The notes below the pieces were generated by a model that saw only the letters and a list, made by a program, of their open reading frames with translations, was not told the origin of the DNA and searched no databases. From Gammaproteobacteria bacterium (GTDB taxonomy: Bacteria > Pseudomonadota > Gammaproteobacteria > Eutrophobiales > Eutrophobiaceae), in NCBI GenBank assembly GCA_965243115.1, contig CBDEUD010000003.1:1748007-1812006 (forward strand): DNA of 64,000 bases, read 5' to 3'. This document shows, piece by piece, positions 9,534-62,175 of this stretch (position 1 is the first letter of the stretch; every line of letters begins with the position of its first letter). A program made the translations under genes and the position numbers.

Positions 9534-11864
9534 TCAGGACAGGTGCAGCGTGCGGCAGCCGCGCAGTTCGCCGGCGGCATAGTCCAGTTGGTAGGTGTCC
9601 CGGTCCAGGTGACGGCCTATGCCCACTATCCGGTGGTGTTGCCGCTCAAGGTCCGCATGGTAGAACACGCTGCAACTCCCCACGCCGGGTATCCCGGCGG
9701 AGGCATGCAGCAGCCCCGGGTGGCCCGAGGTGGGTTTGCCCCGGCTGAACTCCATGTCGTTCACTGCCTGGCTGATAAACCTGTGATGCGCCGGCGCCAG
9801 GTGTTTCCTGATCTCAACCTCCGCTGCCTCGGCGCCCAGGTTCCCTCTTTTTCCCATCGTGTAGCGGCAGGGTGCGGTGTGCGCTGGTGCGGCTTCTGTT
9901 TCCTCTGCAAGCAGGTTATGCCGCAACGGCCGGTGGCGCCGGCTGCGCCGCCGTTCCCGCTCCATGCCGGCCAGCCGGTTGTAGAGCACGCACAGCAGGT
10001 CGATGCTTGCGGCAGCCCTGACGTCCGCCATCAGCCGGATGCCTTCAACCGGGTCGAGAGTCTGATTGTCGAGTTTCCTGAGCACTTGGGCAATCAGCGC
10101 ATTTTTTGCCGCGCACAGGGGTGAGGGCGCTTCTGCCTGTTCCGGACGCCCGGCGGGCCTGTCCGGCATCAAGCGCTGCGCCGCGCCGGCGCCGGGTTTC
10201 GTATCCGGCGGTTTTGCCGCACCTGTGTCTGCGCTGCGCAGGACCGGCGGCGCAGGTGTGGGCGGCACGGCTTCGGCGGTTGCCAGGGTGGCGGAGGGTT
10301 CTGGCGGCGGTATGGACGGCGACCTGGTAAACCACTCCGGCGGAGGTGTCGACGGCGGGGTTGACCATTGCGGTGGAGGTGTTGACGGGGGTGTCGACCA
10401 GTCCGGTTCGTTTTCCAGATGTTCTTCCAACACGCCGATTAACTCCCGATCACCAACGAGCAGGGCAATCTCGAAGACAGTGAATTTCTCCCCTGCCAGT
10501 GATACGGCCAGGTGGATATCCGCCCCGGCATCCAGCAGCATCGCCAGGATAGCGGGATGCCTGTAGAGAACAGCAAGATGAAGCGGCGTTGCTCCCTGAT
10601 TGGTCGGCAGATCCGGATCGGCACCTTTTCCCAGCAGCAACCTGACAATCTCTTCGTATCCTTCCTGGGAAGCGGCACACAGCGCGGTCAGTCCATCCCT
10701 CGTTGTCCCATTGACCCGGATATCCCGCTGCTCCAAGAGAAGCGTGACTACCTCAACATGGTTATTTATTGTAGCGACGAGCAGCGGCAGTGAATTTGCT
10801 TCCCACAATCCGAGGTTGGCATCAGCGCCCTGTTTCAGCAGCAGCTCAACTACTCCCGGCATGTTTTTCTGGGCTGCCGTCAGGAGCGCCGTCGCCCCGT
10901 TAGGTTTGCGTACGTTGACGTTTATACCGGGGTGCGCCAGGAGCAGCCGGACTATTAACTCATGTTTTAATGTAACGGCAAGATGAAGCGGCGTATATTT
11001 GCCCGGCACCCCCAGGTTTACATTTATATTGTCAGCGGCCAGCAACAGCCCGACTATTTTCCCGCGATTTTTTTCTACTGCGACGTAGAGCGGAGTATAA
11101 CCGCCTTGCTGAAGCAGGTTGACATTGATGCCCGGTACGCACAGGAGCGCTTCAAGTACGGCCGCGTATCCAAAATGCGCAGCGACCCCTAACATTGTCC
11201 CTTCATGGTTCGATGCGTTTATCTCGAAACGGCCATGCCTGAGCAGGGTTTTTAACCGGCTGACCTTACCGTCGTAGCAGCATTCAAACAGTTCCTTCTC
11301 TCTCACGTCCAGTTCTTTCCTCACCGGAGGCACGGCGAATTTTCCCGTGGCTTGCCCCCGTGATTTCTTCTTTTTCTTCTTCTCATCCGGTATGGCAGTG
11401 ACGCCGGGCATTGCCCGGGGAAGGGCCTCCTCCGGTTCACGCACGGATGCCGCACCTGCCGGGGGCGCGGCCTCCGGTACTGCCGCCGACATTACTTGTT
11501 CCGTCGGCGCCCCTTTCTTTTTGCGTTTCTTCGGTCCGAACTGCAGGGGCGTCTTCTCAGCCGGGATGCGGTTCGGACCCTGCGGGGTATGAGTGGCACC
11601 CCTTTGCAGGTAAAATTCCCTGCGTGCTGCCTGCAACTTTCCTACCCAGCGCAGGAAGGCGCGGTTGCCCAACTGCCGGTTGCCGGCATCGATGCTGTCC
11701 ATGAACTGCAACGGGGCAGCGCCGCCGAGTATGCCCGTGGCCACTGCCTGCAGGGGGGGTGCTGCAGTTCCCGGCGGGGTCCGGCCGGCGCCGCTGTTCC
11801 GTCCGGGTCGTTGCGCGGCAACTGCCGCGGCGGCTGTGCCGGCATGTTGGTGTGCAGTGTTCAT
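9534..11864 (-). CDS. ankyrin-repeat protein, candidate eukaryote-targeted eCIS cargo
   Basis: About 10 ankyrin repeats (GYTPLYVAV, TPLHLAV, ATALLTAA, ATPLHLAV). KKRKKK and KKKKKK basic clusters. WSTPPSTPPP proline-rich tandem repeat. N-terminal AGNRQLGNRAFLRWV leader motif shared with the DUF4157 proteins. Confidence 0.75.
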   Translation of the reverse strand: MNTAHQHAGTAAAAVAAQRPGRNSGAGRTPPGTAAPPLQAVATGILGGAAPLQFMDSIDAGNRQLGNRAFLRWVGKLQAARREFYLQRGATHTPQGPNRIPAEKTPLQFGPKKRKKKGAPTEQVMSAAVPEAAPPAGAASVREPEEALPRAMPGVTAIPDEKKKKKKSRGQATGKFAVPPVRKELDVREKELFECCYDGKVSRLKTLLRHGRFEINASNHEGTMLGVAAHFGYAAVLEALLCVPGINVNLLQQGGYTPLYVAVEKNRGKIVGLLLAADNINVNLGVPGKYTPLHLAVTLKHELIVRLLLAHPGINVNVRKPNGATALLTAAQKNMPGVVELLLKQGADANLGLWEANSLPLLVATINNHVEVVTLLLEQRDIRVNGTTRDGLTALCAASQEGYEEIVRLLLGKGADPDLPTNQGATPLHLAVLYRHPAILAMLLDAGADIHLAVSLAGEKFTVFEIALLVGDRELIGVLEEHLENEPDWSTPPSTPPPQWSTPPSTPPPEWFTRSPSIPPPEPSATLATAEAVPPTPAPPVLRSADTGAAKPPDTKPGAGAAQRLMPDRPAGRPEQAEAPSPLCAAKNALIAQVLRKLDNQTLDPVEGIRLMADVRAAASIDLLCVLYNRLAGMERERRRSRRHRPLRHNLLAEETEAAPAHTAPCRYTMGKRGNLGAEAAEVEIRKHLAPAHHRFISQAVNDMEFSRGKPTSGHPGLLHASAGIPGVGSCSVFYHADLERQHHRIVGIGRHLDRDTYQLDYAAGELRGCRTLHLS

Positions 11865-11951
11865 TAAACGGTCCTGTCTCAGGCCTGCCCTGGCGGGGAG
11901 GCTGGATGATGCGCTATTGGATGACGGGCATTATTTCCCGACGATAAAGGG

Positions 11952-61300: not shown

Positions 61301-62175
61301 CGTTGTACCGGCGCGGCGTGCCGGCCGGACCAGGCATGGTGTCCCATCCGGCCGAGACGCCTCAATACGCGTCCCCCGGCCATCTGCAAGGGTGAAGCGG
61401 CAACGTTCGCGCAAGGAGCAGCTGCAGATGCAGGTATCCGATCCAGCAGGGAGGCTGCAGATTCGCCCCTGGTTACGGCGCCGGCTACGCGATCGGCGTG
61501 CCGTTCGTAGCTGTCGCCGGTCTGTCCCACCCCTCCCTGTAACCGGGCAGCGCCGGGATTTTGCACGTAGTGGGCCGCCTCATGGGCTGCATCTTCCAGG
61601 GTGGGTGCATTGCCGAATGCCACCCGGCCGCCCTTGTGGTAGGCATCTGAACCAAATTCGGAATTGGCGGACCTGGCTGCGGTTCCCGTATAAGCCGTCA
61701 GGCCGTCGATTTTGTGCTTCGGGCCGAATGCCTGCTGGATTTGTTCCTTAAAAGGGTAGTCTTGAGGCGCATCGCTGAAGCCTTGCATGGCCAGGGCATG
61801 AATGCCTTGGTATTGCTGTTGTACAAAAGCCAGGGTGGCCCGGTTTCCGAAGTTTGCCTGTGCATTATCGACAGCATGCTTGAACATCAAGGGAGGACAT
61901 CCGTTGTTGATGCCGTTACTGATGTCATCCAGGGAAGTGAAGACATTCCCTCGATCCGGCTGGTTCGGGGCTGATGCAGGGAGGGCGCCGGGAGCTGCAG
62001 CGGGCGCGGGGACGGGGTTATGTTCTGTTGCAATTTTTCCTTGTTCGAGGGATGCGTTACCCTGCTGGTGTTCGTATGGTATGTGAGACATGAGCAATGT
62101 TTTACACTCAGAGCCTGTTACAGGTTCCGGGCAAGTGGGGATGGTTTGGGGTTGGCAGGAGACGCAACTCGCCAA
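58330..62175 (-). CDS. large DUF4157-domain toxin-like protein (up to 1281 aa)
   Basis: Leader FGNRATLAFV. DUF4157 (IQQAFGPKHKIDGLTAYTG...AAHEAAHYVQ). Internal duplicated VMPSAQDSHEI segment. Hydrophobic TM-like middle. About 600-aa C-terminal region of unknown function. The N-terminus may start at the downstream Met (62091). Confidence 0.7.
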   Translation of the reverse strand: MASCVSCQPQTIPTCPEPVTGSECKTLLMSHIPYEHQQGNASLEQGKIATEHNPVPAPAAAPGALPASAPNQPDRGNVFTSLDDISNGINNGCPPLMFKHAVDNAQANFGNRATLAFVQQQYQGIHALAMQGFSDAPQDYPFKEQIQQAFGPKHKIDGLTAYTGTAARSANSEFGSDAYHKGGRVAFGNAPTLEDAAHEAAHYVQNPGAARLQGGVGQTGDSYERHADRVAGAVTRGESAASLLDRIPASAAAPCANVAASPLQMAGGRVLRRLGRMGHHAWSGRHAAPVQRGMNPMVMPSAQDSHEIDYWADRARTLRQRDDSSYPLVMPSAQDSHEIEFEEVMACIADGRSLAPAPIRIAAYILGTAISRYALGQITFAVCGPWGLGLSPALSRFFAGAVALGASGLLVPRIMPMVEEYTKFSYAPNPQHGRLPNMVMAAGQGLGAVGLYSSLWALDVPSSEIREIAEGVKKSIPLPYIQHPLWTSLKMITGPLMEVALKQANVGDVGSNSLFIRTRNAADRENLGTAPPRGSVFANSLGGAFMSIGCVGLGALDGKILGEVMKHYPDDQHNRFSEVLACSLVDGSVGGAVEGVVRPGSEWLQRQNWRSPYQWYGDRTRRHDSHTTPVMPGYESGGAFDHWTSLHAGGQAPGDTVASSYPQVIRTFKVRENKFGKSPVYAYGNIEFTSAGFDPIKNLVRPLPGDAGHRYFAVLRFAQDITFVQGTMGVHADISVVDARRQEQGASMEIMINTRTETDAPAGSTLIEGNLMGKAYRIQVRDVDYNFTKGVAAVVMPVTEETFHEMRDRLIRSMTPKKAEDGAEDYPWWKIHAPESDYPVNCFNYAGEQARLTEFMDPQLTGIFAGARKSNSLREYMDAFLNAFKLGYGRFYDDESSVNRIHIFNMGVEQIFNDWLYKRTGDEPVGFLPDPRLYNEQFGGATADITREFREWIGTKKAYKVNPDYFAGMPALTPAQERHPNAYRTSLLEPFKDIPGPLPGPEGHTDFAYTAYVSSPRIRDELDFVVAHSSFGLYKTDRPDKGVWVHLIRKDFDEDPVTGERKYTPYRIPVGRYDESTYTKGNMFGYISRAFIEEMRFPDKVLKGRHAMFIYPIDNFDEMRERIAESLYSKENIEETGPYWDLENSTNQARNCLAYARALESYMKVTGQPDLEIPTFQTMKQMMLTWEMLQEMGYLRYPDYPDMAERVALFNAWLEQFIVPDIEKRGEGPLLYRLPHPRLHNTAPTKHDPEHSLRVKSPDEYLHTKKLFDPSLKPGKDEDDK

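Follow-up and report, generated by a model that had tools for sequence, protein, structure and literature searches.

An AlphaFold2-predicted helical leader conserved on five candidate cargo proteins flanking an Afp/PVC-like contractile injection system cluster in an uncultured gammaproteobacterium

The DNA analyzed here, referred to as the window, is a stretch of 64,000 nucleotides (nt) of contig CBDEUD010000003.1 (assembly GCA_965243115.1, positions 1,748,007 to 1,812,006; G+C content 55.7%) from an uncultured gammaproteobacterium. An earlier note had described a short motif built around the residues GNR near the N terminus of five proteins encoded in the window and had proposed it as a possible signal for loading cargo into a contractile injection system of the extracellular type (eCIS). 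Such a system is indeed present as an Afp/PVC-like cluster at approximately 16.7-43.9 kb, and the genes for the five proteins lie on both sides of it. We found the motif to be the core of a longer conserved leader, which can be followed by a DUF4157 domain, a short junction motif and a variable C-terminal part. The cluster and the five proteins are listed below, with residue numbers in amino acids (aa); L001 to L010 are ten fetched loci used for comparison.

9534..11864, minus strand: ank776 open reading frame (ORF), an ankyrin-repeat protein with the leader, Pfam matches to ankyrin only, no DUF4157 and no HExxH
11631..11759, minus strand: ank776 leader, aa 36-78, PPLQAVATGILGGAAPLQFMDSIDAGNRQLGNRAFLRWVGKLQ
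11631-11693, minus strand: GNR motif of ank776
16681..43889, plus strand: Afp/PVC-like eCIS structural cluster
38056..40311, plus strand: Pvc15-like AAA+ ATPase (winged-helix domain and AAA, Pfam)
44106..44795, plus strand: 229-aa stand-alone leader and DUF4157 protein, starting with ATG 217 bp past the stop of the last eCIS core gene
44223..44351, plus strand: leader of the 229-aa protein, aa 40-82
44289-44351, plus strand: GNR motif of the 229-aa protein
51615..54380, minus strand: otsA921, with leader, DUF4157, junction and a GT20 trehalose-6-phosphate-synthase-like domain; orthologue in L008
54138..54266, minus strand: otsA921 leader, aa 39-81, GMR variant
54141-54179, minus strand: motif of otsA921
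54520..56067, plus strand: otsB515, with leader, DUF4157-like HEAAH module, junction and trehalose-phosphatase domain; start codon uncertain
54727..54855, plus strand: otsB515 leader, aa 70-112 from the ATG at 54520
54793-54855, plus strand: GNR motif of otsB515
58330..62091, minus strand, from M29 (full 1281-aa ORF to 62175): large protein with leader, DUF4157, junction and about 1000 further aa
61810..61938, minus strand: leader of the large protein, aa 52-94 from M29
61810-61872, minus strand: GNR motif of the large protein

All five peptide strings on which the earlier note was based were located in the window ORFs where it had placed them. Alignment of the N-terminal regions, a check which that note had suggested, revealed that the similarity extends over 43-45 aa, with the consensus aLxxVxxGIxxGxxPxQFxxxIDxxNxxLGNRxFLxFVxxLQ. 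A hidden Markov model built from 18 external homologues, with zero window sequences included, was scored against all 1240 six-frame segments of the window and matched exactly these five ORFs (E = 1.7e-23, 3e-22, 2.7e-19, 1e-15 and 5e-13), the next best segment having E = 0.99; the similarity between the five proteins is real and far beyond chance. Additional matches to the leader profile within the 229-aa and 1281-aa proteins were not significant (E 77 and 38, respectively). The OtsA copy, YYGMRGTLKFV, had been described as weaker; it is a variant conserved in a subfamily which also includes P0009 and P0026, and not a decayed copy.

The start of the large protein at M29 is favored because the resulting N terminus, MSHIPYEHQQ, matches that of cluster representatives P0159 and P0161; started at this position (nt 62091) the protein is 1253 aa in length, and its C-terminal part of about 1000 aa had no Pfam or NCBIfam match. 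In otsB515 (54520-54730, plus strand) a family-like N terminus, TNAQYTSEG, is present with no start codon ahead of it, and the annotated ATG adds a hydrophobic extension, MQHFRASIFFMGNLFVKNITYLFL. The 229-aa protein, which is syntenic in L002, has neither an effector domain nor a PxQ[MLF] junction.

In four of the five proteins a DUF4157-like HEAAH module lies directly behind the leader. Only otsA921 scored above the 22 bit cut-off of PF13699 (now eCIS_core) with 29.8 bits, the 229-aa protein (19.3) and the 1281-aa ORF (16.8) being below it, while otsB515 had no Pfam match and its module was visible in the alignment only. The leader lies outside the PF13699-matched region, and ank776 carries it with no HExxH module, as the earlier note had observed.

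To define the distribution of the leader, a 57-position profile was scored exhaustively against 1.84 billion representative proteins, with matches counted as clusters at 50% identity. This search identified 117 clusters at E <= 1e-3, of which 62 were at E <= 1e-10; when the 60-aa leader alignment was searched through a word index, one protein only had been returned, the index being insensitive to so short a query. The leader-bearing clusters ranged from 75 to 1515 aa in length, and the leader was found at a nearly constant distance from the N terminus (median start at residue 43.5). A DUF4157-like domain followed straight after the leader in 44 of the 117 (median gap 2 aa), with Pfam eCIS_core confirmed in 30 of these 44, and the remaining 73 had neither a DUF4157-like domain nor any HExxH. 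Twenty-three of the 73 have fewer than 200 aa and are possibly fragments; among the 50 with at least 200 aa, 27 had ankyrin repeats, one had C2H2 zinc fingers and the rest had no Pfam match. The leader rather than DUF4157 is therefore the common denominator, which upholds the view taken in the earlier note. The DUF4157-bearing members had diverse and mostly unannotated C termini, and single members carried a cytidine deaminase, GT20/OtsA, trehalose phosphatase or Holliday-type endonuclease domain. This pattern is that of polymorphic effectors which have an N-terminal module in common.

In a species-level genome collection at least three metagenome-assembled genomes (MAGs) of uncultured Gammaproteobacteria matched the leader pattern, a number which is a lower bound since the scan used a 6-sequence alignment and a narrow peptide pattern. 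Among JGI metagenome contigs the pattern matched 223 stretches, none of which was confirmed as a relative, and the confirmed relatives were all from ENA, NCBI and Logan assemblies. The family looks taxonomically narrow, although the search pattern itself was also narrow. L003 carries an orthologue of ank776 together with a second, tandem paralogue, and between ankyrin paralogues 31 of 38 leader positions were identical, as against 10 of 31 in the preceding N terminus and 49 of 103 in the linker.

The relationship of the leader to DUF4157 was examined from the opposite direction in a homology search with the leader and DUF4157 together, which returned 120 proteins. The closest (approximately 23) carry the leader, and the remaining 98 were compared separately; many of these are labelled Myxococcota, and the leader was absent from 96 of them. 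A general N-terminal extension of DUF4157 had been named in the earlier note as the finding that would count against its proposal, and because 96 of these 98 close DUF4157 proteins have no leader we conclude that the leader is not such an extension. All DUF4157 genes in the ten fetched loci do carry it. We also considered whether GNRxFLxFV could be the local version of a putative widespread N-terminal motif of DUF4157 proteins, LQRxxGNxAVxRLL. A similar string was found in only 3 of 96 close relatives without the leader, and nothing relevant was found in the literature.

AlphaFold2 modelling of the 229-aa protein with a 59-sequence alignment gave a mean predicted local distance difference test score (pLDDT) of 85 and a predicted template modelling score (pTM) of 0.70, with residues 1-31 below 50. 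The leader was modelled as three helices (residues 34-49, 55-69 and 71-85; pLDDT 77-95 as means of 10-residue blocks). The same three helices were obtained for the first 260 aa of ank776 (36-46, 51-65 and 67-91; block means 77-97), where the N terminus and the linker flanking the leader were of low confidence or disordered. By these models the leader is a confidently predicted autonomous three-helix unit of about 45-55 aa which starts near residue 40. Its invariant residues fall at the boundaries of the modelled helices, with G-I ending helix 1, P beginning helix 2 and G-N-R forming both turn and cap between helices 2 and 3. The first 35 or so residues of leader proteins are hydrophilic (mean Kyte-Doolittle value -0.77), with an aromatic residue within the first ten positions in 81% of members and a weak consensus M-S-Y/H-T-Q-Y-x-P-D-T.

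Between the leader/DUF4157 module and the effector part lies the junction motif aP(L/V)Q(M/L/F), and a polybasic run frequently comes after it. Four of the window proteins contain it.

11535..11552, minus strand: ank776 junction TPLQFG, then PKKRKKK; window copy TPLQFGPKKRKKK
53709..53726, minus strand: otsA921 junction DAVQFT (DAVQFTKSK)
55294..55311, plus strand: otsB515 junction GPVQFN (GPVQFNEE)
61378..61395, minus strand: large-protein junction SPLQMA (SPLQMAGGR)

The junction was found family-wide in P0122-P0232. Of 37 clusters with DUF4157, 29 have it 14-18 aa past the end of that domain, and of 54 in which DUF4157 is lacking, 45 have it 2-39 aa past the leader; the background over 32,488 residues was two matches. 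Among DUF4157 relatives that have no leader, 54 of 69 proteins carry aVQR at this position. The junction is therefore a motif marking the DUF4157 boundary in general, one that leader-only proteins have kept; speculatively, it may be where DUF4157 cuts, either in cis or in trans. Between the junction and the ankyrin repeats of ank776 (aa 105-170; 11340-11560, minus strand) lie lysine-rich runs, KKRKKK and KKKKKKS, and PKKKKK-like runs follow the junction in many members of the family. These may act as nuclear-localisation-like signals or make contact with the lumen of the tube.

Several of the leader genes and the eCIS genes share a promoter-like element of 44-45 nt, CTGGTA-N9-TTG-N5-GTnnGnAC-N7-TATAAA (consensus CTGGTAnnnTnnnnnTTGnnnnnGTnnGnACnnnnnnnTATAnA). 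Matches to CTGGTA-N32-TATAAAT were observed at five window sites as compared with 0.00 expected in shuffles, and with a position weight matrix the window sites scored 47-52 against a maximum of 18.6 over 30 shuffles.

11954..11997, minus strand: close variant CTGGTA...TATATA upstream of ank776, weight matrix score 46.8
12052..12095, plus strand: element upstream of a 629-aa ORF
16057..16100, plus strand: element upstream of the first eCIS genes
17874..17917, plus strand, with a weaker second copy at 18008-18051: element upstream of the sheath genes, conserved in L003
54418..54462, minus strand: element upstream of otsA921, with slightly different spacing and not captured by the weight matrix
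62189..62232, minus strand: element upstream of the large leader protein, ahead of the whole 1281-aa ORF

The element was also found upstream of leader genes in L003, L004, L005, L006 and L008, distant orphans included. We interpret it as a probable sigma-70-like promoter with an upstream activator site. A simple sigma-70 scanner flagged one copy only, most being passed over because the second hexamer is TATAAA. A sigma-54 reading was rejected, the GG-GC spacing being three bases too long. The recurrence of the element in independent loci supports a common regulon, and since leader and particle genes share it, the sequence data suggest that the eCIS operon and the leader genes, distant orphans included, form one regulon. 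Candidate regulators are the MalT/LuxR-type gene at 62244-63884 and the extracytoplasmic function (ECF) sigma/FecR pair at 14230-15866. Genes of the MalT/LuxR type (TPR_MalT and GerE) lie beside leader genes both in the window (62244-63884, minus strand) and in L009 (6862-9600), and in L007 such a regulator (2732-4342) is located about 5.7 kb upstream of a leader gene.

The eCIS cluster begins with three sheath paralogues (18163-22645), two gp19-type tube genes and a LysM-tube gene, continues with a VgrG-like spike, a gp25 homologue, a 1355-aa baseplate-J protein, a CIS tape-measure protein and a fourth sheath-like gene, and ends with the Pvc15-like ATPase, a spike-tip gene and a pair of Pvc16_N genes that enclose an M15 peptidase and small ORFs. 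Leader genes flank the eCIS in L002, L003 and L010 as they do in the window. L002 is a 4.5-Mb MAG syntenic with the window in which the orthologue of the 229-aa protein lies directly after Pvc16; L003 resembles the left flank of the window, with two tandem ankyrin-leader genes flanking the cluster; and in L010, whose eCIS is more distant, Pvc16 is followed by two leader-DUF4157 genes. A leader gene thus follows immediately after Pvc16 in the window, L002 and L010. The Pvc15-like ATPases of L002 and L010 are 88% and 66% identical, respectively, to the window copy, with leader genes downstream in both.

Taking these observations together we think it probable, with some reserve, that the leader marks or docks cargo as a lineage-specific domain of a modular eCIS delivery cassette. 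Its conservation, distribution, predicted fold, DUF4157 independence, genomic association and shared upstream element come from the data given above, whereas a role in loading, and a partner which would read the leader, are inferred. The cassette would consist of a disordered hydrophilic N terminus of about 35-50 aa, often with an aromatic residue within the first ten, followed by the GNR leader, an optional DUF4157 zincin-like domain, the junction with its frequent polybasic run and an effector part that varies (ankyrin repeats; an OtsA-like, OtsB-like, deaminase or nuclease domain; most often a domain of unknown type). Leader genes would be co-expressed with the particle genes through the shared promoter-like element, and by analogy with work on PVC and on AlgoCIS, the eCIS of Algoriphagus machipongonensis, the loading machinery of the producer cell, in all likelihood its Pvc15-like AAA+ ATPase, would recognise the cassette. 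The leader would work jointly with the disordered N terminus, the folded leader providing system-specific docking and the N terminus the thread by which cargo is unfolded and inserted into the lumen of the tube. The packaging signal proposed in the earlier note is thus sustained in part: independence from DUF4157, the position beside the eCIS, the shared promoter-like element and the AlgoCIS precedent argue for it, but a unit folded from about residue 40 is not a short signal at the extreme N terminus as in PVC.

Several observations weigh against a docking or marker role. Many leader genes, in L001 and L004-L009, are separated from any eCIS gene by more than 10 kb: in L001, L005, L008 and L009 no eCIS gene was found within 10 kb of the leader genes, and the orphans of L006 and L004 are about 2.5 Mb (on the same chromosome) and about 290 kb away, respectively. 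The organisms are uncultured Gammaproteobacteria MAGs only, and the promoter-like element was defined post hoc from the window, though it recurs in independent loci. The leader may also not be the signal proper, as the eCIS signals described so far are disordered stretches located in the first 20-50 aa, and its close abutment on DUF4157 in a compact model fits a structural domain extension as well.

The distance of many genes from any eCIS is what would be expected if the leader marked proteins for another export route (a type VI secretion system (T6SS), other secretion system or vesicles) and its adjacency to the eCIS were incidental. We consider this very improbable, as leader genes directly follow Pvc16 in three eCIS loci of differing divergence, the promoter-like element is shared with the sheath operon, and about a third of the leader clusters carry DUF4157, which is reported to be highly eCIS-specific (odds ratio 2614; PMC8213781). 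The close contact with DUF4157 would be explained if the leader were a lineage-specific extension or pro-segment of that domain, with leader-only proteins such as ank776 being remnants left after DUF4157 loss. Apart from the short gap and the compact model, this is in keeping with the retention in leader-only proteins of a junction normally found behind DUF4157 and with a weak profile match of leader columns 12-31 to the first DUF4157 element (hhalign P = 0.0057 over 20 columns, probability 6.5%), which raises the question of a tandem duplication. We regard this explanation as unlikely given that in the 73 clusters without DUF4157 the leader is still highly conserved and is modelled as an autonomous helical unit, that nearly all of the close DUF4157 relatives are without a leader and that the DUF4157 of AlgoCIS cargos is dispensable for loading.

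More plausible, but still well short of even, is that the loading signal, like those of PVC and Afp, resides in the disordered stretch from residue 1 to about 35, and that the leader serves some other role common to all cargos, such as retention in the lumen or at the spike or plug, preventing effector folding or activity in the producer, or refolding or localisation in the target cell. These first residues are hydrophilic, contain aromatics and are disordered in the AlphaFold2 models, matching the features reported for eCIS signals (PMC11297309, PMC11495950). However, they are poorly conserved relative to the leader between the ankyrin paralogues, and the almost fixed distance between residue 1 and the leader suggests that both parts act as one unit. 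The deletion made in AlgoCIS removed the whole region upstream of DUF4157 and so did not separate the two parts. We therefore retain the docking or marker domain, acting together with the disordered N terminus, as the preferred reading.

A further and more speculative proposal, which we consider doubtful at present, is that leader, DUF4157 (where present) and junction form a self-processing delivery module in which the folded leader is a portable eCIS address tag and DUF4157 cuts the junction and frees the effector after injection. DUF4157 could act in cis, or in trans via the co-packaged stand-alone 229-aa protein. If true, this would give a function to DUF4157, whose role has been called elusive in the literature, and would explain why the junction is present in leader-only cargos and absent from the stand-alone DUF4157 protein, and why DUF4157 genes are often found beside toxins lacking DUF4157.

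On how eCIS select cargo, the literature reports biochemical tendencies only and no conserved signal sequence (PMC11297309). In the lineage studied here the leader heads over a hundred effector-like families which are otherwise unrelated. If the leader is an address tag, it would provide a sequence-defined handle on the whole effector repertoire, distant orphans included, and among its members are ankyrin and zinc-finger proteins of eukaryote-like type and the unusual fusions to trehalose-6-phosphate synthase and phosphatase. It would also provide a concrete domain whose binding to the Pvc15-like ATPase could be tested, and possibly a tag that can be carried over to engineered cargo. Two more testable parts, for effector release and regulon control respectively, are the junction motif and the promoter-like element.

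In otsA921 and otsB515, which are divergently transcribed, GT20 and trehalose-phosphatase domains are fused to the cargo module. The pair is conserved in L008 (8247-9739 and 14134-16881), and in L002 the OtsA fusion is broken by an IS1595 element. Its neighbours are a catabolic set of trehalose/maltose type, comprising a TonB-dependent receptor, glucokinase, GH65 phosphorylase, LacI and a HAD phosphatase/mutase-type hydrolase, the last assigned by Pfam HAD matches only. The two fusions are unusual candidates for injected enzymes.

A number of other features were observed in and around the cluster. Between the Pvc16_N genes (41525-43227, plus strand) lie a VanY-like M15 peptidase and three or four small ORFs, one of which weakly matches a membrane-protein family; the arrangement is kept in L002 and could be a lysis cassette for particle release. 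A strong terminator-like stem-loop of 13 pairs with a T-run (18103-18132, plus strand) separates the promoter-like elements from the first sheath gene (18163) and may be an attenuation or antitermination control point of the structural operon. The 629-aa ORF at 12189-14078 (plus strand) has a promoter-like element, no leader and no Pfam or NCBIfam match, and is 90% conserved in L003 beside the eCIS. A Fic-domain gene is found near the leader genes of L009. Opposite the multicopper oxidase gene at 6514-8532 (plus strand) an equally long ORF of 672 aa is present (6538-8556, minus strand), which is probably an artefact of composition.

Among known systems, PVC payloads require N-terminal signal peptides and Pvc15 for loading. 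The signal peptides of eCIS toxins tend to be hydrophilic and to contain aromatic residues, with no conserved signal sequence detected (PMC11297309), and those of lineage Ia are N-terminal extensions of low pLDDT with 'rare homology' (PMC11495950). The proteins described here resemble PVC and Afp cargos (Pdp1, Pnf and Afp18, with signals of about 20-50 aa dependent on Pvc15 or Afp15) in carrying an N-terminal element on unrelated payloads beside a cluster with a Pvc15-like ATPase, and in having hydrophilic, aromatic-containing extreme N termini. The published signals are disordered (pLDDT <40) and not conserved, whereas the leader is strongly conserved, helical and begins at about residue 40. 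It is the preceding 35 or so residues which have the properties of a PVC/Afp signal, and the folded leader (residues 40-90 approximately) does not; on the sequence and model evidence the GNR leader is an additional structured element and not the equivalent of those signals.

The closest parallel is AlgoCIS, in which the cargos Cgo1 and Cgo2 share a disordered N-terminal region and a central DUF4157 and fill the tube lumen (Xu et al. 2022). Deletions have shown that the N-terminal region is needed for loading while DUF4157 and the C-terminal domain are dispensable; the same study reports that the N-terminal regions are alike within a system and not between systems, and that the AAA+ protein Alg15 mediates loading (bioRxiv 10.64898/2026.05.27.728243, preprint, May 2026). 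The window proteins share with AlgoCIS the order of N-terminal region, DUF4157 and variable C-terminal domain, with a region common to the cargos of one system, a likeness of architecture. Their genes likewise lie with the eCIS or appear to be co-expressed with it, some distant orphans apart. The N-terminal region of AlgoCIS is described as mostly disordered and occurs on two proteins, whereas here only residues 1 to about 31-35 are of low confidence and a predicted folded unit is found in 117 clusters, many of them without DUF4157. The principle has thus already been shown for AlgoCIS, and what is distinct here is a conserved, predicted folded domain, a large and diverse protein set mostly without DUF4157, the junction and the promoter-like element.

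DUF4157 itself (eCIS_core, PF13699) is a known eCIS marker (PMC8213781). The leader is a separate unit outside the Pfam model, and most close DUF4157 relatives do not have it. An analogous principle, in a different machine, is found in the marker domains of the T6SS (MIX, FIX and others like them), conserved N-terminal domains on polymorphic effectors whose C-terminal domains are unrelated, which allow orphan effectors to be predicted across a genome.

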